Below, piece after piece: positions 10,564-60,851 of a stretch of 64,000 bases of DNA (the stretch's first letter is position 1; each line of letters opens with the position of its first letter). Below the pieces are notes generated by a model that was not told the origin of the DNA, did not search any database, and worked only from the letters and a program-made list of their open reading frames with translations. This DNA comes from Lingula anatina. Its lineage: Eukaryota; Animalia; Brachiopoda. A program made the translations under genes and the position numbers. The DNA is taken from contig CM120644.1 of assembly GCA_051362555.1 (NCBI GenBank), positions 18,994,534 to 19,058,533 of the forward strand. Reading direction: 5' to 3'.

Positions 10564-10900
10564 CTAAATAGTTATGAGTTGTCTGTCAAAATCTAATTGA
10601 GAAATTCCAAAATAATTACTCATAAAAGATTCATCAAATGCTTCATTTAAGACTTCCATTTGAGGGTTATCAAGAGGGAGATACAGAACATTTATGCACG
10701 TTCTGCTTGTTGGCATTATTTGTGCTGAAAATTCTATTTGAGGTGCCAAAGTGAAACCTATTTCTCCTGGATCCCGTGATGAATGCTAGGACATCCTCTA
10801 GCATTACTGTCCTTTCATCCGCTGTCTTCTGGCGTCCTGCTGAAACAATGAGACTTGCATAACCAGAAAGACATTGATTTCCAATTATGTTTAGAAGAGG
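10564..10900 (-). pseudogene. G2E3-like HECT E3 ligase C-terminal fragment (copy A)
   Basis: LEDVLAFITGS..., then PTSRTCINVLYLP (catalytic Cys motif) ...AFDESFMSNYFG. Confidence 0.7.
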
Positions 10901-11439
10901 CCTTATATTGGGATGTATTTAATTGTCTTTCTGTACAAAAACACAATTTAAGTAGTGTAATGACTGAAGTGATTACAAGATCTAGAAGTTTTAATGATTT
11001 TCTGCATTGACAAAAAATTAACATCCCAATTGTTATCAAACTATAAACAAAGGTACTTTCTCCTACCATTCAGTATTTTCTAGGTGTGGATCCTCCCACT
11101 CGTCAGCTGAAAAATCTCCTTCAAACCTCCGATTCCTCAAATGCTGACTTTCGAGGGAGGGAGGGGGGGAGGTCTTTGTCCAGTTGATACCATTTTTTTC
11201 TCCCAAAAATTCTTTGTTCTAGCAAATCTTGCACCATTTTCACCGCCGATGCTTCTGATGTTAGCAAACATTATAATTATACTCCCTCAACCTGTTTTTG
11301 AGGACCCGGATTTGGGTGGATATCACCTGAGATTAGGAGCAATAGAAATATATTACTTATATAGAACAGACCAGGAGTTGTGGGTTATATAAGCAAAGAG
11401 GATGGAACATGGGTACCGGTAAGACCTGGCATACTTATT

Positions 11440-17600: not shown

Positions 17601-18147
17601 GTCATATACTGGCAATCTAAATGTGACCTTAAAATTGACCTTTGACCTACTTTACACCACGAACTGAATTTTGCAAATTTTGCTTTTCTTTTATCTCCAA
17701 AACTGGCTGAGATAGGTCCGTAGTTATTATTGAACTTGAATAGAAAGTCATATACTGGCAATCTAAATGTGACCTTAAAATTGACCTTTGACCTACTTTT
17801 CACCATAAACTGAACTTTGCAAATTTTGCTTTCCTTTTGTCTCCAAAACTGGCAGAGATAGGTCCATAGTTACTCTTGAACTTGAATAGGAAGTCATATA
17901 CTGGCAATTTACTGTGACCTTGAAATTGACCCTTGACCTATCTTACGAAGAACTTAAATTTGATTGTACCATATATATTTTTTGCAAAAGTTTAAAAATT
18001 CTTGTTGATTGCATTTTTACAGCTTGTCAAGCACAAAACTGGTGGCTGTGTCCATTATTTTGTGTATGTGGGGGTCTATACGAATGCGCTTGCTCCAGCT
18101 GGTGGTACAATATTCGGAGGCGGTATCGCCTCTCTGATCCTCTAGTT
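14610..18147 (+). mobile_element. Non-autonomous Helentron (HINE/DINE-like) with internal satellite array
   Basis: 5' subTIR tattgtaccaccagc with an adjacent hairpin; 3' inverted copy gctggtggtacaata; 3' palindrome gaggcggtatcgcctc; terminal CTAG-TT. Confidence 0.88.
15490..17940. repeat. 146-bp tandem satellite, ~17 copies
   Basis: The unit contains tgaccttaaaattgacctttgaccta. Repeat ORFs are offset by 584 (4x146) and 1166 (8x146-2). Confidence 0.97.
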
Positions 18148-20269: not shown

Positions 20270-21543
20270 GCATCTCGTTTCTATTATGCTGGTATTTTAT
20301 ATTTTGGATCTGCTTTAGGTTTGCTTAAGGTCTATCTGAAGCATCCTTCATGAGTTTCTAATCGTTCTTTAAGCTGGTGTGGCACTTTGACATACTCATG
20401 TTTAGATTTTTTGGTATTGCCTTGAACAGAAACAATTTGCGGCCAAGTCCCAACGTATTCAACTATTGCCACAGAATCAGATAGGGGCCTTCTTTCTTTC
20501 ACTGAATCAGGCACTTTTTCAAGCCAGGTGATTCTTCTCTTAAAGGCACTGTCTTTTTAAAGAAGAGAAATGTTGTTTCGTGGTGAGGATTTCACTTGGC
20601 TGAGGTACCAATGGTGTCCAGGGTTTTCAAATGAGAGTTCCGTAAATCCCTTCTTTCTCAATGACGAATTTTAAACTTCCTGCTGTATGAATATAATGAC
20701 TCAAAATTTGTAGAAAAACGCTTGCTATCCCATACCCCACAATCATTCGTAAACTGACTCTTCGACCACCTTTCATGTCGCTTTGGATTGTCACTGTTGT
20801 TTACAACAAAATAGATGTTTTCTTCCATTCCACACAGTATGTTGGATTTAACTTTTGGTGGGTTGCAAACTTTACTTAACAGGGTTTCTGGAGTTTGAAA
20901 TTTAGTAATACTTATTCCAAGCATTTCTGGCAAGTTGCTTCGGCCTTTGGTGTTTGAATCAGGAGTAAAAACAAAACTGCCATTTTCATCGTCAGAAATA
21001 TCTATGATGGAAATAATATCTCCATTCATTGTCGGAAATATCTATGACATCAGTGGGTGCGGAGTTTGTCACTGGGGGGGTCATGGAGATGGAGGATGCG
21101 TCTTTACATGGCCGCTTCTGAGGTGGTGTTTCAGGATCTTCAAGTTCATGCACTGGGGAACTCTTCTTATTCGAAAACACTCTGCAGTAGAATCAACAGT
21201 AAGGCCTTCACCAGCACAATGTTGAAGGTTGCCTTGAAAATGAGTTGTACTTAACCCAAAAAATCTTCATGAACATGCCTTCTTGTCGTACTGCTTCTTC
21301 AAGGTTATCTGGGGCAAAACCTTTAAGGCGTAGCAGGGCTTGGTGAAAGTCATAATCTCCACCTGGGGTTGAATTACAACTTTTGCACCAATACCCTAGC
21401 TTACTTTGCCCCAAAGCCTTGAAATCTGCCGCTGTTAAACCCTGGCATTCTATTTGAAACCAGGAATTACAGGACTCGCATAATATGGACACCGTGAAGG
21501 CAGTGTTCTTCCTGCAATTGCCACATGGATATCTCTTAGGCAT
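20270..21543 (-). pseudogene. PHD-finger / MULE-type transposon protein remnant
   Basis: PHD finger CGNC..CESCNSWFQIEC..YWCKSC (21208-21543); ENIYFVVNNSDN..QFTNDCGVW; RRITWLE..VAIVEYVG; DLKQIQN-type motif (also at ~40757-40820). Confidence 0.65.
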
Positions 21544-21990
21544 CTTTGTAGTAAAGATTTTGAATCACGGGTTCGTGGAATTGCTCGGATGTATATTCAC
21601 AGAGTCAAAGCTATGAATGAAGGCAGGTACTGGATTGAGCATGGCTTTTATAGGATTTTCAAACAAAGACATACGTAAGGAAGCAAGATTAGGTAAAGTG
21701 TGGGCCGTCAACTTACCTGTCTATGCTTAATCAAAGGTAATTAAATAGAATTTGATAGGGGACACCTACTCTATACCCATGGCAACTGATCTTATCAGTA
21801 GTGTCACACGTCAGCACAGGCTAGATCGTTCTGACACGTCGTATAAACAAAACATGCCACAGAACAACAGTTCCATTTTTTAATAAACTCAAAAAGCAAA
21901 TGATGTGTATACATTACCAAAGGGATTTAAGAAAAGAATATTTAAGTGTAGAACAATAAATTTTATCATTTCCTAAATACCAGTGCCCGT

Positions 21991-31560: not shown

Positions 31561-31827
31561 GCTAGCTCCTTGTTTGGCATCGATCAGTCCTCATTGGCAT
31601 CTCCCTGTATGGATAGTACCTCGTTGATGGACCTTTCTCTCTAACCTCTGTTTCACCTTGGTGCTCACACTAGTCACAGTCAAATTGTCCATTGCATTGT
31701 TTTCAATTCCTTATTAGTTCCTTATTAGTTGTCATATCTGAAATGGCATTGGCAGCCAGCAATGTCTCTACATTGCAGTTTGGTAGATGGTGAATGAGTT
31801 TGTCATTTTGTAAAATATCCAACAACT

Positions 31828-32782
31828 TGTACTAGGTCCTTAGATATACTGCGGGTATAACCTAAATGTTAGGGGCTCTTATCCTACGCTGGAAGATTCT
31901 AGGTACGGTACACGATTCCCAACTCTAAAAATCGCCGATTAAAAGTGGTAATGCTCGCATAACCTGACTGCGTGATAATTTCTAATTCTGATTTTAATTT
32001 CTTCGGTTCATATGGAGAAAGAAAAGACCTTTGGATGTGTTCTCTTATCATAAGCCAGACCGTCCCGTGCCTATCGGTTGGGAGTTTAAAAAATGCTCTA
32101 GATCCCTTCTTAGGGCCCCCTCGCAGATTTAGTTATTAGTTTCCCTATAACCCCCAGAATATCTCGCACCATGTCATTTAAAACATCCAACACATCAATA
32201 TACGTCCGACCCTCTGACGGGACATTTCCGTCACACGAACTTACACCCGTGGAGGCCTGGTCTATTCTACTTTGTCTAATTGTATAGTGCTGCTTACCTT
32301 GGAGGTTCCTGGCCAAGATATCCAATGTGTAGACTAATCTCTGCATTTCGGTTCCGGGCTGGATGGTAGCTTCACGCTTGTTATTGTGTCCCTCGGCCAT
32401 GGTTAGTGCGTGTTCTTACAATTCTCCCCGAATATAACCGAAGTCACTTTGCAGAATTGTGTGCGAGCTTTCGCCAAATCTGTACTAGGTCCTTAGATAT
32501 ACCGCAGGTATAACCTAAATGATAGGGGCTCTAATCCTACTCTGGAAGATTCTAGGTACGGTACACAATTCCGACTTGGGTTTTGTGCGGAGAGAAAAGT
32601 AACGCAACACCACTGTTTAGTTACCAAAATCAAAACTCATTTGTCAGGTCGTAGCCTGATTTTATACCTAAAATTGGTGTGACAGACTTATATCTTTATT
32701 GTGACTTCACTACAATTACAGAAGATAAGAAAAAGATAAACGTTAGATAAGAGATGTACTGGTCTGAATACAGGTCTGAACA
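31828..32782 (-). mobile_element. Internally deleted Gypsy element: 5' LTR (32481-32782), PBS-like site, gag fragment, truncated 3' LTR
   Basis: TGTAC...GAACA termini with 4-bp TSD AACT; TGGCG just inside the LTR; ~93-bp LTR duplicate at 31828-31921. Confidence 0.88.
31925..32400 (-). pseudogene. gag: gag N-terminal fragment
   Basis: ORF begins ~80 bp after the LTR/PBS; SCDGNVPS motif; continues frameshifted to KLKSELEIITQSGYASITTFNRRF. Confidence 0.65.
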
Positions 32783-33389
32783 AACTGTTCCTTTCCCCAT
32801 CCTTGATTGCTTGCTCCCCATCAAATGATGCTTCCCATGATCCACATATCTGTCTTGCCTTTTCTCTGCCTGAGTAGGAAGGGCATGATGGCCATAAAAG
32901 TAGACCTAAAAATCAATTAATATAAATTGAAAAAGATTGTTTTAATTCATCTTTGTTAATAGGTGTGGGTAACATTGGCAAATTTTGACTGGGAGTCAGA
33001 TTTTAATTATAAAAATCTAACTAAGGAGTCACCTTTTTGGGGAATTACATTTTCATGGTACACTTGCATAGTTCCTATCAGTTGGACATTGCAGATTGTT
33101 TTAAATTCCATGAAGTGAATAATGAAAAAACTCAAGCCTTCACAGATAAAATCACCGAATATTGTACCAAATATCTTTTGGCATACTAAATCAAAATGAA
33201 GTTATAATAGCTCGATCTTTGGAGAATTTACCCATTTGACAAAAAAAAAAAAAAAAGAAAAGAAAAAGAAAAAAATCATGGAATTCCAGAACTTTTCTGG
33301 ATCCTAAGGTGGCTCAGGATCCCTGCTGATTGAGTGTTTTGTTGTATAATTAAGTTTCTGAGATTAAAAAAAAAAATTAAATATGGCTG

Positions 33390-35165
33390 CCTTGCCAAAC
33401 TTGCCCACCTGTATGGCAACTCTGTGGTAATCAATGGGCATACAGGAATTATCTCTTAACACCCAGCTCAGCATGGCATGGCTTGTTGGCCTCTTCACTG
33501 TACATTGCAATCAGGCACAACAAAACAGTAACCTGATTTGACAACACTGAAGTCAAAAAGACCTACTTGGATTTAGGCTATTTGCAACCTTACATCTTTG
33601 ATCTTTCAAAAGAGAATATTCAGTTTCTGTTTTATCTTATAGGTCTTGGGGGGGGGGGGGGCATTTCACTTGCTTTTTGGCATATTTATCTTGCTTTCTT
33701 CTCACTTGTGAACTCTTTCAGGGAGTCAAGAAGACATGCTCTATACTACATATTATGTCCAGTTTCCTACCCAAATAAGGTAGGAAAATGTTGCCAGCAA
33801 AATCATCCAATGTGTTGACACTGGCAGGAAGACTGTGGACAATGGTTGCACCATGTAGCACCTCACTGTCACATGTTGGTGGTTGATCTGGTTGTTCACA
33901 TGGCTCGGGGCTTTCAAATATCTGAAAGTGAAGGAGGGAATGACAGGTCCACCTAAAGGACAGGAAATTCCTAGAAGTTACAAAGTTTTGCATTGAGATA
34001 TATAATTGACCATATAGTCATGTTATTCTGTACAAATTTTAATTGTGTAATCTTTCTTAGGATTGATCTTTCTATGGGCTTTTCTGAAGGGTGCTGAGGA
34101 ATTCTTCTTGGTAGAAGTATGAATGGACACTGTGCATCCATAGAAAAGACTATCTAAAGAAACTGCTGGTATTGTTTCTAGCATGTCCATATGAAAATGC
34201 TGGGTTCTCAGTCAAATCTTAAGTTTGACTTGTACTTATCTTTTACCATATTGTTCTCTTGCTCATGACCCTGATTGAATGGGATGGCTGAAAACAATTG
34301 GCTGTTTCAGAAATCACGCAGTTTGAAGCATTTTCCAGTCCTGCACAGCAGAGACTTAAGGACAGACACCTGCCTGGCCTAGTAAACATGGGTCAAGGTA
34401 AAGAAAAGGTGCTGCTTGATCCAATGCTTCAACATGAAAGGTATATTTTCTCTCCTTAAGGGCTCTGCTACACAGTGGAATTTCATGATAATATGTCATG
34501 ATCTGATCTTAGAACATGAATGTTGACCAGATCCTTATGTAGCAATTAAGTCTTTTCTGCAAGTGTGGATGGGAGTTTCATCATTTGAACCTCTATTGAG
34601 CTGAGAGATTGCACAGGGTTAAGTGCAAGATTATGAGCATCATATACTTGTTTTGAACCAGTGTGAGGACTTCATAGAAAGAAGAGATCTCTTCAGTCTC
34701 AGTCTTCTAACACCCCATTCTCATAGATTAGATCGACCTACATTGGATCGACCTAACTCCCTGGGGGTTCACGCTAAATAGCTGTCAGCCGGGCGGACAC
34801 GAAAGTTAATTACCCCTTAAAGCTTGTAGTAGGCGGGGACAGACACTTAAGGGGGATTATCTGACAGTAATCTAGTGAGACTCCCCGCGGTGATAGATCG
34901 ATCTAAAAGTTGTGAGAACAGAGCCAAAGAGATGACACCAAGGGTCTTTTGGATTGAAATTTTTGTCCAATCTTCCCCCCCCCCTCCCCCAGTATTAGAA
35001 TGCTTCCCTTCACCGTTCATTAATTACTATAATTGCACTCACTGTACTCTGACAAATAGTGACTGATCAAATATGGTTACTGTTACTGGAATTTGGCCTG
35101 GATTCAGATAGTCAACTGTTTGGCCAAAAACATCCATGTCATGCTTTATTTGATTGCCTTTATTG
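33390..35165 (-). pseudogene. Academ-type transposase remnant (copy B, MITE-interrupted)
   Basis: ORF 33718-33993 DSEVLHGATIVHSLP..TLDDFAGNIFLPYL; same motifs as copy A. Confidence 0.8.
34711..34925. mobile_element. PIF/Harbinger-type MITE
   Basis: Absent from the paralog (cttctaagagatg at ~7498); inserted at TAA; imperfect TIR; second copy at 43754-43960. Confidence 0.85.
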
Positions 35166-37769
35166 TGGATTCTAAAACCATCAGATAATTGATTTGGACT
35201 TAACTTGTATAATATTTATATTTACATGCAGAATATGATTGAAAATGTGCATTTGTCGTGAAAAAAAAACACTACAGCAGTAAAAGAGGTAACAAAAATA
35301 AATGAATAGCTCCCATTTAACTACAAAATTTCTTACTGGCTGTATGTGTTTATAAAGTAGGTTTGTTTCAAAAATCAGCCTGGTTGGATCATTATTACAT
35401 AAATTCTTGATTACTTTTTTGCATTTTTTCAAGCGTCATATCTTTTGGTATAAGTGTATGCTCCCAAAAATGCAAAGCTATTTTTGTTTTTACTTAAAAT
35501 TTGCTGGCTGGCTATATGTATAAGGCAGCTTCATATCGATAATCAGTATGATGAATTATTTATGTGAAAGTTCCAATTGCTTTATCGTCTTTCAGACATG
35601 ATGTTTTTTCCACGGATCCATGGAATTCTGCATTTTTTATGTGATCTCAGAGCATCTAAGATAAAAAAATAGGTTAGTTTTTTTACCCCATGATAACTGT
35701 TCAGAGTTTTTTTTTAAGACCTCGGCTCACTTTTTACTTTAAATTTGCTGAGTCACCTTATTTGTTATTATGGCAGGTTCAGTTTGAAAATCAACACGAT
35801 TGAATATCCTGACAAAATTTTATCTTTTCAGAGGTTTTATGTATATATGTCAGATAGACTAATAATCTGACTTTCAATTTGACCTTGACATCTGTGACCT
35901 GGTACAATCATTATAAAGTATATAGGGTAGACAATTGCAAAGACACCAAAAGTAAGTTTCTCTATGGAGAATTATCTGAGATGTGTATATTTTTTATATA
36001 ATTCCATAAATTGGTGACCATCTTGAACTATTTGCCCAAATGGGGTTATTCTCCAGAGGGTTAGGAGGCCAGTATGATTTAGTATGTCAAAAGGTAGTTA
36101 TATATGTACACCTGCAAAATTTGGTGTTTTTATCCAGCTTGCTGCTAAGTATAGATGATGTTCTTAAAAATCAAGTGTGTGCTGAGATTGTGACTGGTTG
36201 TGATTGCATTGTGTCTGGCATGCACCACTGCCACAATCTATGAAAGCAGGGCAAATTATCTCTTATTCATTTCAGTACTGTTTACAAGTATTATTAATTT
36301 ATGAAGATTGATTGAAAGTGTAAAGTAGCCATAGAATTCTGAAGTCGATAATGATGTTTTTTTATCTGTCAAAGGGGCCAGTAAGAGAACACCTACCAAT
36401 ATAAATTCATGGTAATCTCTACTAAAATATACAATACTTCTTAGTACTTCTTTACAAGTATCTTCCTGTTTTTCAGCTATTTGTCAAATTCTCCCTTTTA
36501 AATCTAAATTTTCTTTTGGACCAGCTATATTGCTCTATAATACTGTTAAGATAATATGGACAGGCAGATTTTAAAGTCTTCCTAAATACCTTATAAACTG
36601 TCCTTTGAGAAGAAGTCAGTCCATCAATTCTGCAGGTATGTTAAGTTGGATGTTTTCTGTGTCCCATATATTACTATGGACTTGGAGATCTTCCATTGAT
36701 AAAGCACCTTCAGTTTGTCTTTTAGCCACACAGTGTAAACAGACAGTGTAATAATCAGTGGTACAAGAGCATGTCCAAGTAAATAGTTCATACAAGTAAC
36801 AGACTGTTCTTTCCAGAAGACCATCTCCAATTTTGTACAAAAAAATCACTTGGGATGAGCAGGTATATTTGAGAAAAGAATGACAGAAAGCCAAACATGA
36901 GCCAGCATAAGATTGTTAACAAAAGCAAAGGTCTGACATAACATTGGAGGGTACTTTGCCTGGTGTTTGAAATATGCCTCCAATGAGGTGCAGGTTGTCA
37001 AGGTCCCTAAATGTTATCAATAACACAAACGTTCCCTAAATGCAACCTCTACCTGCACTAACAACCTCATGTAATTAAATTAGCTGTAATACATCATTAA
37101 TTGATTTTATTTTATTAAACTGTTCAACGGCAGGTAACATTTATTTTGTTTTAGTGTAAGATACTAACAACAACACATATTTTAATTAGCATTAATTGAG
37201 CATGAATTGAATTTTATTAAATGGCAGATATCATTAAAGGATTCTGGTCATGTTAAAATTCATTTCTCGAATTTTGTAAATTCAGCAATCAATGTATACA
37301 CTATAGATATGTTTGCATCAACACCCACCTTTTAAAAAGTATAAAAACTATCTATTAGTAGAAAAAAAAACATTTTAGTAAACCTCACCTCAATATGCAA
37401 AAATGAAGCAACAGATTTGGGTCACGTGATACTGTGACGACATAGAAGATAAAGAAGCGCCAGAAGATTCAAGATTCCAGGATCAACGAATTGCGAAATA
37501 ATAACTATGAACTGAGGAAACAAGTTTTTGGTACACATAAATAATTTAATAGAAACAAGTGAAAACCATGTCAGTACAATTTAAGTAATTACACACTGTG
37601 TTGAACCCTGAAAATGAATGCACAAATTGTTATCTGAATATTGGGATTGTAATCAATGATAGTGTGGATCGTACGAAGGACGGCAGAAACAATGGAAGCT
37701 GGTGAGGTCACTGCTGGGCTGATGTCATTTTCTCCCAGTTGACAAAAAAACTATATCTAAGTTTGCTGC

Positions 37770-38125
37770 CTAAATAGTAATGAGTTGTCTGTCAAATTCT
37801 AATTAAGAAATTCCAAAATAATAACTCATAAAAGATTCATCAAATGCTTCATTTAAGACTTCCATTTGAGGGTTATCAAGAGGGAGATACAGAACATTTA
37901 TGCACGTTCTGCTTGTTGGCATTATTTGTGCTGAAAATTCTATTCGAGGAGCCAAGGTGAAACCTAGCAGAGGAAATTGTCCTGGAGCCCGTGATGAATG
38001 CTAAGACATCCTCTAGCATTACTGTCCTTTCATCCACTGTCTTCCGACATCCTACTGTAATTAGAAACAATGAGACTTGCATAACCAGAAAGACATTGAT
38101 TTCCAATTATGTTTAGAAGAGGCCA
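37770..38125 (-). pseudogene. G2E3-like HECT fragment (copy B)
   Basis: VMLEDVLAFITGSRTI, then frameshifted PTSRTCINVLYLP. Confidence 0.7.
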
Positions 38126-38301
38126 AAAATTGGGATCATACAAGAAACTAGTGAGCTCCCCCTGAGCAATAAAAGTTAGTCGTGAGGCCATCAGCACTAA
38201 AATTGTTTGGTAGGGATGGCTCCTGGTGTAAAGGCTTTAAAAAGCTGCGCCCCATGAGTAGAGTCGGTCATGAACTGGTCCCCAGAAAGATGTCTGAGTT
38301 A

Positions 38302-38945
38302 TCATGGTCTTGCACACTTAAAACCTGTGTACTCCTGGGATGGAAATCTCTCTCTTATGTTAAATACAACACAGGAGGGAATAACCATTCTCTTCTTCCT
38401 TCCTAAATTATGGTGGATATCCACCTTGTAAAGGAGCGATAAGCTATGAAATGATATAACCTGGAACAAATGTTTGAAAGAATATTTTAGCGAGGAACGT
38501 ATGAAGATAAAAATGCCACTGCCATAAATCAGTCTGTGTGGCAATTCTAATGTAATATTTGTTTATTTATTATTTTTTACACTTAATTTGTGTAATTTTA
38601 GTACAAAAAAAGTGCACTAAAAATAAATACTAAGGATAATGAAAAACAGTGCTTGTTCATATTTATTATTATGTCATTAACTTATTTCAATAATATGGAC
38701 AAGGACTTAGAATAAAAATAAAATACATTACTTGTTGATGGGCACATTGTCATCAGTTGGTCCTTCCTGTTCCACATTCTGGTACATATTAACTTCAATC
38801 ACGTCTCTGTTAAGACACACTGGAATAGGCAGCCACATGCATGATGCAATTTTCATTTTCTAGTCTGTCTTCTATGGGGCTCAGCTCACGACAACGTATG
38901 CATTCTAGTCCATTAGACATTGGATGACATGAACAACACAAACAC
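38302..38945 (-). pseudogene. P2X7 ballast / nanor-like Cys-rich domain gene remnant
   Basis: CVCCSCHPMSNGLECIRCRE..NCI, and C-terminal LGRKKRMVIPSCVVFNIRERFPSQEYTGF; AT-rich intron-like spacer between them. Confidence 0.75.
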
Positions 38946-39309
38946 CTGGAAAATATTTTTTAATAATGAAGAGAGAAATGTCTACCACTTAAATTGCGTT
39001 TGTGGTAAAAACGAGGTTGGTAAGAATTTGCTGACTAGCAAGTGGGGCGGCTTTGGGACGCCATATGCTTAATTGTCTTTTTGTACAAATATGCAATTTT
39101 AAGTAGTGTAATGACTGGAGTGATTGCGAGATCTAGAAGTTTTAATGATTTTCTGCATCGACAAAAAAAAACAAAAAAAAACACCCCAGTTTTGATTAAC
39201 TATAAACAAAGGTACTTTCTCCTACCATTCAGTTTTTTCTTATCGTGGATCCTCCCACTTTTTAGCTGAAAAATCTTCTTCAACCTCCGATTCATCGTAA
39301 TGCTTACTT

Positions 39310-39525
39310 TCCAGGGGGGGGTTCCAGTTGACACCATTTTTTCTCCCAAAAATTCTTTGTTCAAGCAGCTTGTGTGGGTAGGGGCATTGTCTTGAAAAAA
39401 GCAGTGGCCTTCAGGGAGAGTTTCACTAAGGAATGGCAGATGGAAGTCTTATATAATTTCAACATAGAATTCCACATTCATCAGCCCTGAAAGTTTGGTT
39501 GCACCCATTTCGGAGATTCCTGAAA
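39310..39525 (-). pseudogene. Tc1-like DDE transposase fragment (shorter copies at ~11160-11224 and ~42000-42092)
   Basis: GISEMGAT..MNVEFYVEII..LPFL..LPEGHCFFQDNAPTHTS..NGVNW. Confidence 0.8.
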
Positions 39526-46125: not shown

Positions 46126-46545
46126 TTACTTGAGTTTTCTTTTACAATCATCACAAGTATAAGAGTTATTGGTGACTAGCGTAGCAGCAGACTTGGCATC
46201 TATTCTTATACACATGTAATGATAGAAGTTATAACAGTTGGTACATCTTATCACTGGTGCCCCAGGACGGTGGGTCAAACACTTACAGTACACACTTATG
46301 GTATGAACCATTTCTTGTGCACTATGTCTCTGAGTTGAGGGTCTTTCACAGGGAAATAAAGTCAGTTCCTGACTCTGAAAGCACTTTAAAAGGTGAGACC
46401 TCATCTCATAACCATTCTAAGAATATTCAAGTCTTGAGCACCCATAAGAAAATTAAACAGTTCATTAAAGCTGAAGGCGCCTAGGGGTAGGAACTCTGAC
46501 AGCTGCCCTCTGAAGGGATCATGTATTGAATCATATGCTTTGCAC
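46126..46545 (-). pseudogene. Ulp1-protease/PHD TE accessory protein C-terminal remnant
   Basis: AYDS; MRSHLLKCF..LTLFP; PHD VYCKC..IRCTNCYNFYHYMC..YTCDDC. Confidence 0.65.
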
Positions 46546-48414: not shown

Positions 48415-50853
48415 CGGTAAAGTCTTGAAAATTTCGTCGCTTAAAAATTAATTAATATTTTTAATTGTGTAAATCCAACTAATTTTTCAAAATTACCTCT
48501 CCCCGACTCCTGGGTATGACGAAATTTTCAAAAATCCGGCCTTTGGGCTTTTATCCTTAGCGACTGTTATCTTTGACCCTCCTATATGGTGGGATATTTA
48601 TTACTACTTCCTAAGTCATTTTCTGGTGTTAAATAATAATCTATTTATTAGTGCATCTCGATTAAGTTACATTTAACTTACTGTACCCGAAAACATGTCG
48701 AGAAGTATTTTCTCGTAAAGAAACATACCTCCTGATAGAGGAGAAGGATCAAGATAAGCCTAATTGCAACCTTGCATCATAACCTGGACGCGACATGTTA
48801 AAAAAAATTACGCACTTGGGAACGTTTGTTGCATGCAGGGCTTTTCCCAGGATTGAGTGTCAGGCCTTCTAAAATTACCATCTGTAACTTCCTAAAAATT
48901 TACAGGGAGTTAAAATAATGATCTCCCGTTGACGATCTTCCGCAATTTAAGTTCCTTGAACTAATATGAAAACTGCATTTTATTATTGCTTACATCGCGA
49001 ACAATCTCCCGATGAAGATGTGAAAATTGCCTTTTCGTCTAGCAAGGATCGCGAACGATCTCCTGCTGACGATCTTCCGCGAACGAAGTTCCCTAAATCC
49101 CTTGAACTAATATGAATATCGCATTTCATTCTTGCTTGTATCGTGGACGATCTCCCAATGATGATATAAAAAATTTTCGTCTCGCTCGGATTGCGAACGA
49201 TCTCCCTCTGACGATTTTATGCGAACAAAGTCCTGACGATAGTACGCAAACGATTCTCCGCCGAAGATATGCCGTGAGCGGGGAAGGGGGGTTAAAGATA
49301 AAACTAAATATATATATTATTTATAATATTCAAAGGGGGAGGCGGAGTTAAAATAATGATCTCCCGCTGATGATCGTTCCCAAACTTAGTTCCTTGAACT
49401 AATATGAAAACTGCATTTTATTATTACTTACATCGCGAACAATCTCCCGATGAAGATATGAAAATTGCCTTTACGTCAAGCTAGGATCGTGAACGATCTC
49501 CCTCTGATATGATCTTACACGAACAAAGTCCTGAGGATATTACGCGAACGATTCTCCGCCGAAGATATACCGTGAGCGGGGGAAGGGGGCGGATTAAAGA
49601 TCAAATGAAAATGAATATTTTTTAAAAATCCAAAGCGTGTGTGTGTGGGGGGGGTTAAATAATCTCCCGCTGACGATCTTCCGCCAACAAAGTTCCCTAA
49701 ATCCCTTGAACTAATATGAAAATTGCATTTCATTCTTGCTTACATCGCGAACGATCTCCCGATGATGATATGAGAATTGCCTTTTCGTCTTGCTCGGATC
49801 GCGAACGATCTCCCTCTGACGATCTTACGCGAACAAAGTCCTGACGATATTACGTGAACGATTCTCCGCTGAAGATATGCCGTGAGCGGGGGAAGGGGAT
49901 GTTAAAGATAAAATGAAAAATATATATTATTTATAAAATTCAAAGGGGGAGGGGGGGGTTAAAATAATGATCTCCTGCTGACGATCTTCCACGAACGAAG
50001 TTCCCTTGAACAAATATGAAAAGTGCATTTTATTCTCACATTTTATTCTTACATCGCGAACGATCTCCCGCTGAAGATATGAAGATTGCCTTTTCGTCTC
50101 TCCCGAATCGCAAACGATCTCCCGCTGATGATCTTATGCAAACGGAGTCCGCTACAAATATGAAAATTATCTTCTCGTCTCGTTTGGATCGCGAACGATC
50201 TGTTGACGATATTACGCGAACGATTCTCCGCTGAAGATATGAAAGTTGTCATCTCGTCCCATTCGCATTGCGAACGATCTCCACATACGAGCCAGGTAAT
50301 CGTTAAATGGTCCTAAATTGAACATGGACATGAATAGAAGTGACGGGTACATTTCACTTCGAGATAATATCTTGATTTTTTCATTGTGTCTTCCTCATTT
50401 AGGACAGCCGCCGATAACAATAACGGCGTTACAAATGACAAAGCCGCGGCCTGTGACTTCTATTTGCCGGCTTGATAACACACCTTAAGTCAGGTAATAG
50501 TAATGCAAATAAAGACAAAAGGCCGACGTTCCCGCAATTGAGAACAGGAATTCACATCTAAACCATCTATATTGTGAGTAACCGCTCGCAGGGGCGCACT
50601 ATTGTTCCTATCTCCCATAGTGAGTGTTATCGGCAATGATATCCTGATCGTATCATTGTCTTGAATCAACTGACGCATTACCTGCATGTTTGAGCTGGAC
50701 AACGCGGCCATATTTGGTGACGAAATTTTCAAAAATTATAGAGTACCTCATTTTCAAGGTCGACGAAGTTTTCAAAGGGAAAAAAATTACATCGGCGGAA
50801 AATCGTCTGCCGGCGAAATTTTCAAGAACGACGAAATTTTCAAGACTTTACCG
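48415..50853. mobile_element. Non-autonomous TA-flanked TIR element with complex CpG-rich internal repeats
   Basis: Perfect 25-bp TIR cggtaaagtcttgaaaatttcgtcg with TA TSD; appears nested in a CAGGGGCGTA-started MITE (~48289). Confidence 0.88.
48905..50285. repeat. Hierarchical repeat array (core cgcgaacgatctcccgctgacgat)
   Basis: Many imperfect core copies, organised in longer blocks ending gccgtgagcgggga. Confidence 0.9.
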
Positions 50854-51115
50854 TACACATTAATTTGAAAACCAAAATTTTACCTTCATATATAGAAAAT
50901 TATTGTAATTCTTTTAAATATGAGAGGCAGGAAGTATGTTTTAACCGTATAATTATATTCTTTCAAAACTCACCTTTTTTTTTTGTTTGTTTTTGGAGCA
51001 GGAACCTGACCACTCTCAGTCTCTGAATTTGTCTCTGTCTCAGTTGCGGTCTCTGTAATACCTTTCGCACTATCTTCAGTGTCTCCATTTGAAATTACTA
51101 AGTTGTTTGTACCGG

Positions 51116-51603
51116 TGTTACAGCGCACCTTAGCTATGTGCGCTTGTATGGAATCTGGAATAGGGGAAGGGGGTATATTACAAAAAAAAACTATAAGTAA
51201 TATAGTGAACTGGAGTGACTAAACTCACTTATTATTGTGACAACTACAGTCTAACTAGCAGTGATGCACAAATGCGGCTGTCACACCCTGATCAGGGGCG
51301 TGAACAACTTCCCATAAATTTTCCACCTTTAGGACTCCTATGAAATCTTCAAAAAGCTCCTAACCTGTCTCTACTATATACACCAAGTGGTTTGATCCAG
51401 TAGGATGAGCGAAGGAATGTTGGTTGATTGAAGAATAGCTGGACAGGACATGTTGTCTCTATGGCGGTCTCTCAGTGGAGTGGATCTGAGTAAAACTATT
51501 CTTAAATTTTCTGCTATTCTCTTACTTTCTCCTAGGTGGCGCACCAACCAATTCATAGGTGACATTAGCACGCTGGCGTCCAACACACTCCACAACCACA
51601 ACA
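51116..51603 (-). mobile_element. Putative 3' LTR with PPT
   Basis: Minus strand: PPT AAAGAAAATGGGGGGAGGGGGGA immediately followed by TGTTGTGG; AATAAA at ~51229; candidate end ...TGTAACA at 51116. Confidence 0.65.
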
Positions 51604-52401
51604 TCCCCCCTCCCCCCATTTTCTTTAAATAAGATTGGGAACCTGCCCAATTTTGGATAAAAGGGGGAAATGAAATTGAATTTATGAAATTATAGGACCA
51701 GCCTATATGAAATTGGAAATGGGACCATAATTTGTGATAATGAGTATTTACAAGAAGGAGTTCCCCAAATAAAATGATGATAGGGCCAGCCCATAATTTT
51801 TGAATAAATATAAATTGGTATTGGACAAAATTTGGTTTGAAAATAAAATGCAGGGAGATCTGTATCCACTGTGCATATCTCCGGATTACCAGTTGCCTAA
51901 GTCAATCAGTTTTCCTTATTAAGTTCCTGAAAGACGTGTCCAGTAAAACTTAGACACAGCCACACAGCAAGGATCACGGGTCAGGGGGTCTCAGTCATAA
52001 TCACAAAACTGGTCTTCAAAAATAGCAGTACAGCAAAAATCAAAGTATATGGATATGAAAAATTAAGGTCTTATATGGGATATTTTTTCCAGATGACTTT
52101 GCTTGTTAACTGAAATAAACCATTTTCAAAAATAAAGTATGGGATGATTTTCCATTGTCAAGAATGAAATACAAGATAACTTTTCTTGTTGAGTATATGA
52201 ACATTTTGTACAAACTATGTACATGAAAAATATATAATGCAAATAAAATAACTGTGCAATATGTTATAGTAGTGCATTTTTTTTTTTCATTTTTTTTTTT
52301 TTTTTTTTGTTTTTTTTTTTCTTTTTCAATAAACAGAAAATTAAAGGCTGTACTTAATTTGATAAAGATAATAATGGGCCAGTTTACTCTTTTTGGTATA
52401 A

Positions 52402-53350
52402 TTAAATACTGTTGGTGACTGTAACAAGTATATGCCTAACCTTGACACACCTAGCCTCTGCTATAATTTCTGCTGTCTCAAACAACAAATATGGTGTGGA
52501 AGCCCTGATGTTTTGGGCATCGAAATATGGTGTGTCTGATTCCAAGAGTAATTTACACTCCAAGACAGCTTTGACCGCCTCCAACTGGAATTTGTTGAAG
52601 GTTTTAACCAGCCTGGTGAAGCCATAGTATATATATTGTTATAAACACGCAGCCACATCTCCATGAGCTGCTTAATTGTTTCCTGTAAAACAGTGGATAT
52701 GGATGGGCAGATGCTCTGGGATGTTATTCTGTTGTAGGATTGGTAACAGATGCCTGATGGCATACACATAGTTACCACCTTGCTGTCAATTACTGAGGGC
52801 AATAAATCATTGAAGAGATCTTCCTGATCCTGCCAGACATGGGAGGACTGTAAAAAATTAAGACCAACCTCTCCGATGGCGGTGACATGGGGATCTTGAA
52901 CCATCGTCCTGAAGGCTATGAGATTTTGCTCCCACAAAGCAGGGATTTGGCCTTTTTCGGTTGAAAGCCTATAGCTACGTACATGTTCTCTGGCTTATTT
53001 AACAAGGCACTCCGAGTCGGATACCTCTCCGGATCACAATATACCGCTACTGAGCCCACCATATTAACCTCCTTGCCCTATGGCACAGGAACTTTTTCCC
53101 GCAGATTCTCCAGGGTTCCATTGGACGGCAGATTATAAGCTTGAAGAGTCTTGTCCAAGTGGAAATAGCTATGGAAAGCCTGGACTCCGACTCCCATCAC
53201 TACATCTGCAACTGTTGTCCGTTGGATACCTGCAGGCACCTTGAAATTGGATACCTGCAGGCACCTTGAAATTGGATACCTGCAGGCACCTTGAAATTGT
53301 TCAGCCAAATCCCATTGGGCTAGATTCATGCATGAAGCTAACTTCAGCAC
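52402..53350 (-). pseudogene. tatD: TatD-family DNase remnant
   Basis: FHSYFHLDK; AVYCDP; AIGFQPK; AIGEVGLNF; IHIHCFTG; LLLESDTPYF; STP motif. Frameshifted; 25-bp x3 tandem repeat at 53224-53298. Confidence 0.85.
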
Positions 53351-53399
53351 AGCTCGCCAATAAAATATTTACTATTTATAGACTGACCTTTTCTTTTCT

Positions 53400-53963
53400 G
53401 AGACATCATGGCTGCCTCACGGACTTGGAGACCCTTATCCTCCTGTACTCCTCTTTCTTTTCGTTCTGTCTCTGGCTGTCCTCTGCAGCTGCATTCTCTT
53501 CAAGAACATCAGTCAGTTCTTGAAGCAGATGCTCTCTTTCCCCAACTTCCTCAGCTGTTCCTGACCTACAAAAAAATGAGGTAAAATCAATGTGCATCTA
53601 AAGCCTTACTATGCAGTTGTTAAGGAAAACTAATTTTACTGGCAAATGAGGTATACATAAAAGTCTTGGATACAAGAACCTATTAATTTATTTTTGCTGA
53701 CATTAATTACAAAACTATATATTTATATATGTATACTCACGCCTTTAAGGACTCTACAGTTTTCTGGCTGAAGGCAAGTTTTAAGGCCCTAATTCGTGCT
53801 TCGCAACTTTTTATGCTGAAACTGCCTTCTGTATAAGAAAAACTGTTGAGGTTGGTGACCACCTCCTCACATTTGCCCCCCCCCCTTCTTCAAATGGGTT
53901 AAGGGTGATGATCTCCCTCAATAGCATCAAATCGTCCTTCACAGTGAACCTCTTTTGAGACAT
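53400..53963 (-). pseudogene. Harbinger-type Myb/SANT DNA-binding protein, 2 exons
   Basis: MSQKRFTVKDDLMLLREIITLNPFE..., a GTGAGT..TTTGTAG intron, then SGTAEEVGEREHLLQEL. Confidence 0.75.
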
Positions 53964-54794
53964 GTTGGTTAACTATAAAAAAGGAAACAAAATTATTATT
54001 TCATTTCATGCACGTACATATAACTAAAAAACATTGCTTATCTCAAGAAAATAGCAAGCAAGTTACAGAGGAGCATATGCTAGGTTATGCCTCGCCTTTC
54101 TACCACAAATATAATAACAATTTACAGTCCTGTAGCCATCTATTTCCAAGGGGCAATTTCTTTTTTTTATGACATTTTACCGGCAAAAATGGCAGTTAGT
54201 AAGAACCCCCTTATCAACTCCCGACTATGTGCCTGATAAACCAAAACTAGTGACTCCTCTCTCTTTAAAAGCCGGAATTTGCATGAAGGTACACTTGTAC
54301 TATTGTAAAAAAAGTATATATGGCATATAAATTAGCAAACATTACCTTAAATAACTATTTATAATAATCTTCCACACTGGCTAGATAGGAGCGCTTGTAT
54401 TCCGCAGACTATATAGGACGATGGTATATATATAATGAACTCGTTGAACATCACTAACTGATGACATATTAATCTAGCCAGCGTATCTAGCCTGAAGATG
54501 AAGGGAGTGGGAGCTAGGTCTCCTGTGAAGAGAGGATCAGTCAAAGTTTGAAAATTTTGGTCTCCATTTTTGGCTGCCATGGCCATTTTCTCTAAATTCA
54601 AATTCATCTTTTGATCTCTGGCAAAAGGGTTTTGGCAAAATCGTGCTCAAACAATTGGAATGGTGGGATGCTGACATTTAATGTTTTTTCAAAAGTTGAA
54701 TGACCTAGAATATAATGAAAATAGTCTTCATCAAAGAAGTATTGTAGAAGTGCCAAATTAATTGGATGGGCTCTTGTGATTGAGTCATTATAGT

Positions 54795-57425
54795 CCCAGA
54801 TAGCATGCAAACGTTGGCCCAACGTTGGCCCAACGTTGCCTTGGTTGACCATGCATACGTTGGCCCAACGTTGGGTTTCCATCTAAGTGCTCACTTTGGC
54901 CAACGGTTGGCTGAACGTATTTGGCCAACGTTGGCCCAACGTTGGTCAATTTCAATGCTAACGCATTGCCAACATATTCCCAACCAAACTACGTTGGCCC
55001 TACATTGGGCCAACTAATATTCAACGTTGGCCCAACAATTACCCAACCTGTAACCAACAGTGTATTTACGTTGGTTCTACTAATAACCAACATCGGTCCA
55101 ACGATTACCCAACCTCAAACCAACATTGCTTTAACATTGGGCCAACGGTAGGCCAACTGGTCACCGAGGTTTCTGCAATTTGCACAACGATTAATGACCC
55201 AACCTAAAACCAGGGGCACAGTGATTTACATCATTGAACCAAAGGCAAAATAATTTTATCCAGAATCACATACGTAGTAGAGCACTGTAATAACATGTCT
55301 GATGCACAGGCAGATCAATGTCCTGATGAAATATCTTAAGCATCTGAAATCTACAGACTGCAAGGCATAACTGAAAAATTAGCAAGCTAATTAATGGATG
55401 AATTCTTCAGAGGACTTGATCTGCCTGTGTTGCGGTAGAAACAAAAAGATTAGTGATATATTTTAAACTGTTTAATTAATTCATAACATTACACTGAACA
55501 ATACCTTCAACCAACTAAATAATGTGATGGGAATGGGAAAATAGTACAAAAAGACATCTCAAAGAAACTTTTTATAAAAATATTATAATATTAAATTTAA
55601 ACAATCATAAATGTATTTTATATGAATTGTTTAATGATTAATGTCAAGAAAATTATTACCAGTCCTGTGAAAGAACTTCCCACCTTATTCCTGGAGTCAA
55701 GGCAGTTTTTTTTTTTCACTATTATAGTGTTTTTCACCCAATCCAAGATTCACGATTATTTCAATTTAAAAAAAATCTTCATTAAATTAAATTTAAATCC
55801 AGAAACCATTGATTATATATCAGGTAAGGTGTTTAAAATTCAAAAGAACTGTCATTAAGTAGATAAGTTACTAGTAAGTCTATAAAATCACATAAAGTCT
55901 CTTCCTTCAGGCAAAATCTCAGACATTGTCTCTTCAAATAAAATCAGTGGTCATATGAATGCAATCTTCATTTTTTCTCTCTCGATCTTTCCTGTCCTGC
56001 GCCTGCATGATCTTTGGCAAAGCACGATTAGTTAGGTGTATCTTCAACATCTTTTTCTGAACAGTCACAGAAGAGTGTGCTGCATCTACAAATTTAAATA
56101 TTAAAAATTTAACTTGAAATATAATGCTGGAATTATTATGCATATGCATCATATGCATAACATTTTTACATGCTTAACTATACCACTTTCCACATCACTG
56201 TGTTCATATACATACTAGTAGTTGTGTATTATAATATAATATGATAATCTCCCCATGTTCTCTAAGTTAGGCAAAAGCTAATATCTTTAACTTTTACAAG
56301 TGAGTGTCTGTGTGTGCAGTAATTCATAGCAAAATTACTAGTAGTTCTTCCATGTACACTTGACCATGGATTCAGTTTTAAAGGGTTCAAAATCCCATAC
56401 AACTGTACTGTACAACTGAATACTATATTATTTAGTACAACCAACAACTCTATCACAGAATTCACTGGCAAGGATTCATACAGACACATAAGAACAATTG
56501 GCTTTGAAGGACCATTAAGGCTCTAATTCAAGTAATTTTCAGGGAAAGGTATTATCCCCATCTGTGAATTATTGTCTGTATGTATGTCAAGCTTGAAGTA
56601 ATATTTTACCAAGGGCAAAAATGGTGAAATACAAACCCTTTTCAAACCTAATAGCAATGCAAGTACTTTTCAAAGTCACAAACAAAAATCAAAGTGCTGG
56701 ACTAAATTTGAATACTGTTCAAGGCTGTATGGATCCTGGTGCATCAGTAAATTATATGGAGAAATACAAAATTGAAAGACACTTACATGCTCACTTCTTA
56801 TCCTGTCTCTTTATCTCTTCATTTTCTTTCTAGTTTCCAAAAGATGTATTCTTTTTTAATCCAGAAATCCATGTTTTCAGTCTCTTCCTTATAGAACATT
56901 CTTGACCCTCTGGCTTAGATGTTTGAAATGGCTTAACCGTTGCGCGCTTAAACTGACCTGATTGAGCATGCTGTAGGCAAACAGTTTATATCAAACTGAC
57001 AGTTAAGATAAATTAAAGCAGAAAACTGATTTTAACTCAAGGAATTTAAACTCATAATGAAAAAAAAATTAAGAAAAAATTATATATGTTTCTTTTAAGC
57101 CTAATAACTCTATGTATATGATCAAAAGATAAGTATATGTGCTTCTCAGTTGTGAACAGAAACACTTTCAAATTAATTATTGGGTTTTTAATTGCATACG
57201 TTGACTACGTTGGCCCAACATTGGCACAACGTGTGCATATTGCAGTTACGTTATATATTTCATAAAATGATGTGGTTGGGCCAACGTGTACATATTGCAG
57301 TTACATTATGCATAAAATGATGTAGTTGGGCCAACGTTGGGCCAACGTAATACTGCCAACGCCAACTATGTGCCAACAAACCAACCATTCCCCTACGTTG
57401 GCCCAACGTATGCATGCTATCTGGG
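54795..57425. mobile_element. Non-autonomous EnSpm/CACTA-like element
   Basis: TIR CCCAGATAGCATGCA, 2-bp TSD GT, and many subterminal acgttggcccaacg repeats at both ends. Confidence 0.9.
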
Positions 57426-58150
57426 GTGACAGTTCTGGAGTCTGGGTGAGAGATATAGATAATCTGTGGTAACTGAACACTGACATGGTACGTACATTCA
57501 TGATGCAGAACTGACAACCTTGTATTAGGAATGTTTTTCTGTTTGGGCAATGAAATACCATTTTGCTAACATTTGAAACCAAAATTTTACCTTGTTCCAA
57601 CTCTCGAATTTCCTGTTTGCTTGCATTATGTACAAATTGGAAGTTACATAATGTTTTGACTTGCTTGTTAAGTCTCAAAAATAGTGACATAATGCATGAT
57701 TTCTGTGAAATAGGGGTGAGGGTTTTAGAAATAGGGCAAACTTTTAGGGTGGACCCATAACAGTTTTCATACTCTTCCCATGACATCTCCGTAGAGTACT
57801 GCCTATCCATGGTCACGACTAATAAATTTAGGGTATTAAAAAAATGAGTTGCATGTGATGTTGAATCATTTAATGGGACTGGAAAATTGGAAACTTTATA
57901 AATCTGGAATTTGCTTTTTAATGGAGTGAGGGTACCTTAATTGATTGTAACAAAAATAGTGTTATTGATTCTGGATGTCGCGAGCTTGGCTTGTGAAAAG
58001 TAAAAGCTGGGTTGAGTGATTGCAATCACTGATTGCAAAGTCTGTGTTATCTGTTTTTAAATGTTTTTGGATCATTTCTGGCATTGTTTTGATCATGTCT
58101 ACCGAAACTATGTCTGGGGATAATTTATTTGTGAGTTCTGTTATGCCCTG

Positions 58151-58318
58151 CAGGCCCGTAGCCAGCAATTTGAAAGGGGGGGTTCTTTTTCTGAAAAAGT
58201 GGACCTTTTACCATATAATCCCCATGTACCTAGGTCAAATTTTACCCAGAGTGGACCTTTTTCCAGCAAAAAGGGGGGTTCTTTCGAACCCCCCGAACCC
58301 CCCCTGGCTACGGGCCTG
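58151..58318. mobile_element. hAT-like MITE with 5-bp TSD CCCTG
   Basis: TIR CAGGCCCGTAGCCAG; removing it restores the env frame (..DTFTQG|ITEL..). Confidence 0.9.
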
Positions 58319-60023
58319 CCCTGGGTGAAAGTGTCTAAATTCCTGGGGATTTCAGTGGCTAAGTGTGTTTGATGCTGGGTTTTCGCTAGAATGTTTATGA
58401 TCAATTTAGTCTGTTCTTGTATGGTATCAATGTTGTTGTGTAGCTGTGTTAGTTCCATGTGATTTTATCTGATGGCCAAGATGGTGTTACTGACTCTTGT
58501 GTTAACTGCTTGAAAAAATGAACCTAACTTTTGTGTTTGCCTGTAAAATGCAGTTGTTGTAATTGTTTCTTTTCTGCAGTGCGTTTAAGTGGTCAATAAC
58601 CTTGTTTACGTCTTCTGTGGCTGTCCCAAACAATGAATGTGACAAATGTCCAACAAACAGTAGCAGCGATCTTTTCTCTCTGGAGTTACCGTGCTCTTCT
58701 GCCAGAGCTTTGACAGAGTTTGACCTTCAAGAGTCTGTCCTTGGCTTGTTTGTGCATTTGGAATATCTGACGTTCTGCTGACTTCACAGCGAGATATTGC
58801 GGGTACTTCTGTGTTGCAAACGGATCAATTTCCAATTTCTTCCTTGAGGGGTTGTGGTAAGGGGACTTCAAACGTGTGGAGCCAGTAATCTTTTGATGTC
58901 CATGCGAGTGCTACTTCCTTGAACTGGACTCCATAATTAACTTGGGTTAATGTGGAGATAGCTGATGCTGGATGGAGTAGCATTATTATAAGAGTGCACA
59001 TGATAATGAGGCTTCCTGGGAAAAGAATGATTTAGCCATTACCTTTTATTGCTTTTTGAGTTCTAATTGATTTGCTATAGCATTTAATCTAGGGTATCTC
59101 ACCGGCAATGGAAACTCTCTAATGTACAAGTGCACCCACAGAGTTGGCTGGCTTTAGGGTTACTTGCAGGGGCAGAGTGATGCCAAGATCTTGACAGAAG
59201 GCTTGCATGGCTTGCCGTTGGGCTTCGCCAATCCCCCTGATTTTTTGTCGCCTGATGTGGATATAAAATCAGATAGGCTTTTTAGGGGTTTATTAATACC
59301 AAAAATGAGCGAGATGTTTTTTTTTTTTCCGGATTGGGATTTCTCTCCCGTACTTACAAATTCAGAAAAGGGGTTCTTTCCAGTTTGGGATACTTGCACA
59401 ACTGAATGTGCTTTCTCACCCGTACTAGGAAAAGAAGGGAAGGAGAGGCTCATAAGGGATGGGATTGGCCTTTGATCTTGCTTTCTGCTTTGGGATATCT
59501 GCCCAATTGAATGGGTTTTCTCTCCCGTACTAACAAAGACAGAAGCAGAAGAGGAGGTGGTAAGTTTGCGGCAATGCGCACCAAAGCTGCCCGTCTACTA
59601 CCCTCCATGGAAAATACAAGGGACTTTTCCGAAGCAGACCGAAGAATTGCAAGACTCCCAAGAATAGACCTCCCCCTCCAGGACGTCCACCTCCATGGCC
59701 TCTGTTGATGTTGAAGGAACTGGTGTGGAAGTCCCCCCTCCCCCAGACACCACAAAAGAGGTTTGGGTAATTGTGGGGTCAGTTTCCAACCTTATATCCC
59801 TGACTGGTCCCGAGAAAACACTTGGCTCCCCAATATGTTTGGGTCTCACTGGCTTCTTGGATTTCCCAGTCTTAGAATAAGTTGGGAGTTATTTTTTTCC
59901 ACCCAGTTTTTATTGGAAATCCCCTTGGAGAGTACTTCAGACGCTAAGTTGTGCAGCCACGAGTAGTACTCACCCTACTTATTCTCTTTGGCCATTTGGA
60001 TTTTACATAAGTCCACAACGTCT

Positions 60024-60429
60024 TGTACTAAGTTCTTAGATATACCGTGGGTATAATCTAGTCGCTAAGGGCTCTAATCCACCGTTGAAAGATTCTAGGT
60101 TCAGTATGCTATTCCCGACTTGGGTTATGCCCAGAGAGAAGAGTAACGCAACACCACTGTTTGGTTACAAAAATCAAAACTCATTTATTGCCAGGTCGCA
60201 GCCTGATTTTATACCTAAATTTGCATGACAGACTTTATTGAATATCTTTATTGAAACTTTATAATTAAAGGAGATGAGATATGAAAAGAGATTAACTTTA
60301 GATATGAGCTATAAACTTTAAAGGACATGACATATGAACAGGGATTATAAGAGCTATAAACTTTGACACGTATTACGAGTCGTGCGCTCAAGCCCGCGAC
60401 TCAGGTTGAATAAATTACTAGTCTGAACA
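60024..60429 (-). mobile_element. Solo Gypsy LTR (related to 32481-32782)
   Basis: TGTAC...GAACA termini, 4-bp TSD GTCT, and the shared agtaacgcaacaccactgtt..aaaatcaaaactcattt block. Confidence 0.9.
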
Positions 60430-60635
60430 GTCTTATACTGACTGTTGGATCTTGTCAATATCCCCAGGCAGAGCTTCTACCAGATCACAGACAAATTTCC
60501 CGGGCTGGATGACTGGAAACACACAGTATTTTATCTATGTAGCCAGTTCATACACAACTGTATTTTTGGACTTGGGGGGGGGGGGGGGGGGGTTTGCTGC
60601 TGGGCCATCTGAAATGATAAATGAACACACATGTT

Positions 60636-60851
60636 TTAGGTTATATGTTGTTCAGCTTTCTTGCAACGAGGACATTTATACTTATCAATATCCCAGGCAT
60701 CAGTCACTGTGATATTAACACAGGACCCATGATACCATTCATCACAGAAATCACACTGAATCATGAACCTTCCACCATATGGTTCTCTACAAACACAACA
60801 TAAAGTGGTGACAGTAGTATCATTAGGAAGTAAATGGCTACAAATATACAA
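60636..60851 (-). pseudogene. PHD finger fragment
   Basis: LCCVCREPYGGRFMIQCDFCDEWYHGSCV..DIDKYKCPRC. Confidence 0.8.

Follow-up and report, generated by a model that had tools for sequence, protein, structure and literature searches.

The DNA analysed here, a 64,000-nt stretch of the Lingula anatina genome (contig CM120644.1, positions 18,994,534 to 19,058,533; hereafter the window), is best explained as containing the broken 3' half of a Ty3/Gypsy LTR retrotransposon from a lineage with a third gene between pol and the 3' LTR. This gene, ORF3, combines a zinc finger, a helical domain and a group II TatD, is likely expressed from a spliced message and likely encodes a 3'-5' exonuclease whose substrates are single-stranded DNA or RNA:DNA intermediates of the element itself; we put the probability of this reading as a whole at about 0.75. 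The layout, the breakage of the window copy, the conservation of catalytic residues in the relatives and the parallel divergence of integrase and TatD are established. The window copy is a dead pseudogene, the decayed 3' half of a Gypsy-type element, and its value is that of a pointer to the lineage.

The window copy and its insertions

The TatD domain lies on the minus strand at 53176-52390, where Pfam PF01026 matches in two frames (E 2.5e-4 and 5e-6). An initial annotation had recognised a TatD gene with a full set of motifs within 51116..53350. GEVGL (52874), HCFTG (52695) and LLESDTPY (52548) are indeed present, but they are spread over three frames with stops in between, substitutions have removed the first His of HxH and the HP histidine, and nothing is left of the HxR region. 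Nor is the gene confined to that interval: as judged from the sequence, a broken ORF3 begins at an ATG at 60608 (minus strand), and the TatD piece is its C-terminal third. When one frame of the window TatD was used as a protein query, with its stop read as X, the sole match was XP_013398409, an 826-aa protein 90% identical to the query, which is listed as an uncharacterised Lingula anatina protein and has the Pfam TatD domain at aa 553-824. In tblastn, the 826-aa protein aligns in order to window positions 60573-60421, 60028-59116 and 53368-52387.

Three segments of ORF3, all on the minus strand, can thus be delimited. The first (60430..60608), itself broken, corresponds to about aa 1-56 of the 826-aa relative (tblastn of the family member P0002, 59% identity). 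The second (59121..60019; about aa 51-508, tblastn of P0002, with a profile match at 59253-59110) consists of the low-complexity linker and part of the helical domain, carries deletions and frameshifts, and has had its zinc finger deleted. The third (52390..53358; about aa 508-826) includes the TatD domain and is marked by stops, frameshifts, replaced metal ligands and an internal 25-bp tandem triplication.

The first two segments are separated by a solo LTR (60020..60429) of another family, foreign to the TatD element, 406 bp in length, with TG..CA ends and a 4-bp AGAC duplication. Pieces related to this solo LTR (60429-60024) occur at 31820-31924 and 32481-32753, and its family is unrelated to the LTR of the TatD element. 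Between the second and third segments lies a 5.76-kb foreign block (53359..59120), a composite of other repeats inserted near codon 508, with three bases at the junction fitting both sides. The uninterrupted joint 60019-60430 was recovered in two of four DNA runs and the joint 53358-59121 in three of the four, so that other copies exist without both inserts. In addition, loose ends at 53361 (DNA run X1 and RNA run X10) agree by eye with the 59121 side, and the 826-aa relative aligns on both sides of the block.

The 5.76-kb block has a content of its own. An env-like ORF at 57301-57936 was at first taken to belong to the TatD element, until the joints placed it inside the inserted block. A fragmented ORF (59120-57426 plus 54792-54500, minus strand), presumably env-like though it gives no Pfam env match, is split by a 2.6-kb element with inverted ends (57425-54793). 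The block further contains a 170-bp repeat of very high copy number (58151-58318) and an intron-containing fragment (53960-53360, minus strand), presumably resembling the Myb-like gene of Harbinger transposons.

Upstream of ORF3, the sole surviving part of the copy's pol is a C-terminal PHD finger (60657..60806, minus strand; Pfam PHD, E 1.7e-10), about 50 bp from the ORF3 ATG and 56-68% identical to the pol C-termini of the related loci L007, L009, L010, L017 and L030. Two ORF fragments with PHD fingers of a different type lie at 46126-46416 and 21211-21564 (minus strand). Neither gag, RT nor integrase of the TatD element was found within the window, and self-comparison of the window revealed no second copy of its LTR; the link to an LTR element therefore rests on the PHD tail, the LTR signals and the relatives.

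Downstream of the TatD gene, about 780 bp of non-coding DNA, close to the 800 bp estimated at the outset, lead to the polypurine tract. This 3' untranslated region (51627..52389, minus strand) includes an A-rich tract (52277-52326) and is multi-copy on either side of it in DNA run X1. The polypurine tract (51604..51626) is followed by TG at 51603, in agreement with the initial annotation, and a G-rich tract with a TGT start is likewise found in L007, L010, L015, L017, L028 and L030. The 3' LTR (51201..51603, minus strand; about 403 bp) starts with TGTTGTG, as in L007 and L010, and its decayed 3' end can be placed to within a few bases: four RNA reads of run X10 leave the window sequence at 51204 and continue into the primer-binding motif TGGCGACGAG, the same motif that stands 3' of the LTR in L010 and L012, which sets the LTR at about 51603-51201. 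This interval behaves as an LTR by its polypurine tract and TGT start, shared with the relatives, and by the primer-binding motif that follows it in other copies. The LTR does not extend to 51116, as had been proposed; 51200-51116 is flank that, by eye, looks like an intron end and an exon of another repeat. The poly(A) signal attributed to the LTR was not recovered either, since no AATAAA occurs from 51000 to 51700 on the minus strand. The contigs of DNA run X1 that are identical to the window copy have a depth of 52-56. Summed depth, which is not to be read as copy number, is 280-650 in the TatD domain and 110-400 across most of the 3' untranslated region, and it rises to as much as 1600 in the LTR.

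The remainder of the window is rich in other repeats. Further G-rich tracts followed by TGT, at 29073 (minus strand) and 49888 (plus strand), are possible LTR starts. A 5-kb duplication (5940-11224 and 33129-39367; 81-94% identity) contains a small internal inversion, and its first copy holds a tRNA-Thr gene (9123-9194). Two tandem repeats, a 146-bp satellite with about 17 copies and another of high copy number, occupy 15491-17940 and 48900-50280. The intron-containing fragment at 63314-61889 (minus strand), for which the pieces tried gave no Pfam match, presumably resembles a Tc1-type transposase.

Gag, pol and ORF3 in related elements

A metagenome scan with the DSHFHLD pattern yielded 44 loci; because they were picked by one motif and many come from few assemblies, they are neither an unbiased nor an independent sample. 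Pol lies upstream of the TatD gene in 20 of the 44 loci; where the sequence upstream of the motif exceeds 2 kb, it does so in 18 of 21. The three informative loci without pol (L025, L046 and L048) are all decayed, and in L023 the upstream match is to the protease only. Among 47 chosen ORFs annotated with Pfam, those of L010, L017, L018 and L030 comprise gag, pol (PR-RT-RH-IN-PHD) and, as an ORF of its own on the same strand, TatD, the PR-RT-RH-IN order being that of Ty3/Gypsy elements; those of L013, L015 and L026 comprise pol and TatD. The order in the longest loci is gag-pol(PR-RT-RH-IN-PHD)-ORF3-PPT-LTR. The proposal that a Gypsy lineage carries a TatD gene in the env position is thereby borne out, as is the linkage of its homologs to LTRs and pol. 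A fusion of pol with TatD was not found among 15 near and six longer homologs or among 14 long representatives. The pol ends in a PHD finger throughout the lineage, and the gag of L015, L017 and L030 starts with a helix-hairpin-helix (Pfam HHH_3).

The termini of the relatives conform to the same plan, with a G-rich tract and a TGT start followed 210-450 nt on by a TGG primer-binding motif (ends set by eye); the motif stands after the LTR in L007, L010, L012, L015, L017, L030 and L046. The contigs of two loci, L010 and L015, are circular and show a single, collapsed LTR. In L046, ORF3 lies between two LTRs that are 87% identical, with no clear target-site duplication. This 2.7-kb element (L046:3225-5935) is non-autonomous, with the TatD ORF3 alone between its LTRs and both the primer-binding site and the polypurine tract kept.

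Pairwise distances of integrase and TatD correlate across nine loci (Mantel r 0.55, p 0.0015), with TatD identities of 28-66%; five of the 14 loci were omitted for having less than 100 aa of TatD in one frame. Such a correlation would fit long co-inheritance of the two genes, although related elements will share traits in any case.

A second, deleted Gypsy element is present in the window at 27330-21990 (minus strand), with a partial 5' LTR (27330-27210), an integrase (27208-25911), a polypurine tract at 22334 and a full 3' LTR. Its ORF at 23433-22702 has the zinc-finger/helical module and no TatD, which suggests that an older ORF3 module has either gained or lost TatD and that the nuclease is dispensable in some kin.

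The ORF3 protein and its expression

ORF3 opens with a small domain, after which come a long linker of low complexity, a zinc finger of C2H2-like type and a helical domain with NSxxxLxHWR at its end; TatD comes last. Named members of the family come from Lingula, Mercenaria, Pecten, Ruditapes, Littorina and Ostrea. A profile search returned 1170 clusters at E 1e-30 or better, which may include ordinary TatDs; the best 150 of these score above 256 bits, and at least 150 clusters (50% identity) share the ORF3 architecture or its TatD. All seven metal and catalytic sites are intact in P0002 and in 118 of the 138 relatives among the best 150 clusters that cover them. The check on catalytic residues suggested by the initial annotation thus gave conservation in the relatives and damage in the window copy. 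One or more sites are missing from the other 20, some of which are long open frames (P0055 and P0122). Zinc-finger ligands are invariant where aligned in the same clusters. Among the long open ORF3-like proteins that have lost the HxH motif are P0055 and P0169 of Ostrea edulis and P0122; P0055, which has two zinc-finger/helical modules and occurs on many contigs, may be a domesticated copy.

The predicted structure of the TatD domain is a TIM barrel (pLDDT mostly 80-95), and its top Foldseek matches are all TatDs (E about 1e-12), with 18-24% identity to solved structures; the zinc-finger/helical part was modelled poorly (pLDDT <60). Pfam detects TatD alone in ORF3, with no DEDDy exonuclease domain, and the TatD scores below the NCBIfam cut-offs of every named family. 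A quick tree, which included element proteins and six TatDs from viral contigs only, placed 38 element-type domains apart from the viral-contig sequences, which are 26-29% identical and served as outgroup. Eukaryotic TatDs make up the nearest Atlas clusters, and the ORF3 domain presumably resembles that of TATDN2. Its recognisable sites comprise the HxH motif, the GExG glutamate, HxR, HCF and ExD. By the HxH motif the domain belongs to group II as defined in the available text of PMC10085689, and E656, E774 and D776 align with the catalytic acidic residues that E. coli TatD and TATDN2 need according to the available text of PMC10711561. It is very probable, given these residues, that intact copies encode an active two-metal nuclease. 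No transmembrane-like stretch was found in P0002 or in 86 of 92 long relatives, and 51 of the 92 carry a basic cluster.

The ORF3 message would be made by splicing from a donor in the LTR to an acceptor before the ORF3 ATG. In the window, a pyrimidine tract and CAG resembling a splice acceptor (60606..60625, minus strand) directly precede the ATG at 60608. In 10 of 19 related loci the first long-ORF ATG has an acceptor-like signal within 20 nt, as against 220 of 2423 other ATGs (9%), and a donor-like motif is found within 100 nt before the primer-binding site in six of eight LTRs, against an expectation of 0.17 per 150 nt. Splicing from the LTR to ORF3 thus appears likely from these signals. 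The family is weakly transcribed, and its RNA reads, 70, 27 and 53 in three runs, are not assignable to the window copy, none being 99% alike to it. Over the stretch that these reads were aligned to, which excludes the acceptor, none was spliced. Across most of the TatD domain, X10 and X13 reads are oriented as sense RNA would be; reads of the opposite orientation were found in X10 near 53110-53364 and over the LTR, and X16 contains both.

Possible roles of ORF3 and relation to known systems

The ORF3 nuclease may act on the products of reverse transcription, trimming their ends or clearing leftover single strands and hybrids. By analogy this is our best single guess, held tentatively. A 3'-5' exonuclease acting on the single-stranded or hybrid products of the element is favoured by the activity shared among TatD enzymes, which are 3'-5' exonucleases on single strands (PMC10085689, available text), and by the unrelated 3'-5' exonuclease found in the same slot of the rotifer elements Juno and Vesta. 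Trimming of cDNA is made less plausible by the fact that ORF3 is separate and has no obvious route into the particle, and the second element of the window, which lacks TatD, and the long relatives without HxH speak against a universal need for it. It is also possible, with odds well below even, that ORF3 works outside the particle as a counter-defence, destroying DNA, hybrids or small RNAs of element origin that would otherwise be sensed by the host or serve it in silencing. Retroviral accessory genes are separate ORFs with splice signals, as ORF3 appears to be, and the protein is devoid of a transmembrane stretch; moreover, a TatD, QatD, takes part in bacterial anti-phage defence (PMC13434339, available text). 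The proposal overlaps with the preferred one, action on reverse-transcription products, if the substrate is the element's own by-products. A nuclear role, with the zinc finger guiding ORF3 to integration sites or to transcription of the element as an AP endonuclease or an R-loop RNase like human TATDN2, seems unlikely. Group II TatDs do have AP endonuclease activity (PMC10085689), TATDN2 degrades the RNA of R-loops (PMC10711561; available text in both cases), and the eukaryotic affinity of the nearest Atlas clusters, the invariant zinc finger and, as a weak sign, the basic clusters point the same way. Basic clusters are common in low-complexity linkers, however, and the kinship with TATDN2 is presumptive.

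Two further readings would deprive the association of any function for the element, and both are far less probable. The TatD piece could derive from a host TATDN gene, as a processed pseudogene or a fragment that came to lie beside an LTR by chance, as the A-rich tract beginning about 65 bp past the ORF3 stop and the listing of a relative in RefSeq as an ordinary uncharacterised gene might indicate. This origin is largely refuted and hardly credible: the tract is flanked on each side, in DNA run X1, by several diverged copies and so is not the tail of a retrocopy, as the initial annotation had considered, but part of element sequence running on to the polypurine tract and LTR; the N-terminal two-thirds of the protein are family-specific, with a pol tail in front; the relatives are placed after pol; and the number of clusters is far above expectation for a single-copy host gene. 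Alternatively, TatD could be carried without benefit to the element, its lack in the related element of the window and its disarmed state in some relatives being in keeping with this, yet such a passenger is very improbable given that the catalytic sites are kept over 28-66% identity while the linkers diverge freely.

No description of TatD in LTR elements was found in the literature searched, which lay outside Repbase, Dfam, subscription journals and supplements. The available text of the rotifer ORF3 paper (PMC5408684) does not mention TatD, term look-up in the available text of surveys of mollusc and annelid LTR elements (PMC6238403 and PMC8556966), whose supplements could list such elements, and of a review of accessory domains (PMC6338049) gave nothing relevant, and PMC12709183 and PMC6962438 deal, in their available parts, with TATDN2 only. 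TatD is absent from the searchable published lists of retroelement accessory domains. The role of non-envelope enzymes in LTR elements is a question remaining after the rotifer work, and a lineage that has at least 150 divergent ORF3 clusters, and in which active sites are intact, provides a direct handle on why such enzymes are carried. The findings also suggest that, in the annotations of brachiopods and molluscs, many gene models labelled "uncharacterised TatD" are retrotransposon genes, which affects gene-family counts. In a bolder and rather doubtful extension, these elements would form a Gypsy lineage of marine invertebrates that is old, widespread and so far undescribed and that has its own TatD as an accessory gene in the style of retroviruses; the enzyme, expressed from a spliced message, would destroy by-product nucleic acids before they come to the notice of host sensors or silencing pathways. 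If that were true, LTR elements, the rotifer ones with DEDDy ORF3s included, would repeatedly have taken up 3'-5' exonucleases of unrelated origin to serve a single step of the life cycle that has gone unrecognised.

Three known systems come closest to ORF3. Like the env genes of errantiviruses (Drosophila gypsy) and retroviruses, it lies between pol and the 3' LTR and is likely expressed from a spliced subgenomic message; unlike them, it encodes an enzyme and not a fusion protein, in keeping with the lack of a transmembrane-like stretch in P0002 and most long relatives. With the group II TatDs, among them E. coli YcfH and YjjV and human TATDN2 and TATDN3 (PMC10085689, available text), ORF3 shares the HxH, GExG glutamate, HxR, HCF and ExD sites and the TIM-barrel model, but it is mobile and multi-copy, has an N-terminal extension of 400-800 aa and is only distantly similar to the solved members. 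The nearest precedent is the DEDDy ORF3 of rotifer elements. The likeness to Juno and Vesta of bdelloid rotifers lies in a Gypsy-like element with a non-env enzyme in the ORF3 slot, intact catalytic residues and no transmembrane part; their ORF3 enzymes are a DEDDy 3'-5' exonuclease and a GDSL esterase (PMC5408684, available text), and the former would match the presumed class of the TatD enzyme. The TatD element differs from both in that its ORF3 is a TIM-barrel TatD instead of an RNase H-like DEDDy enzyme and is fused to a zinc finger and a helical domain, in a pol that ends in a PHD finger, and in a gag that often starts with a helix-hairpin-helix.
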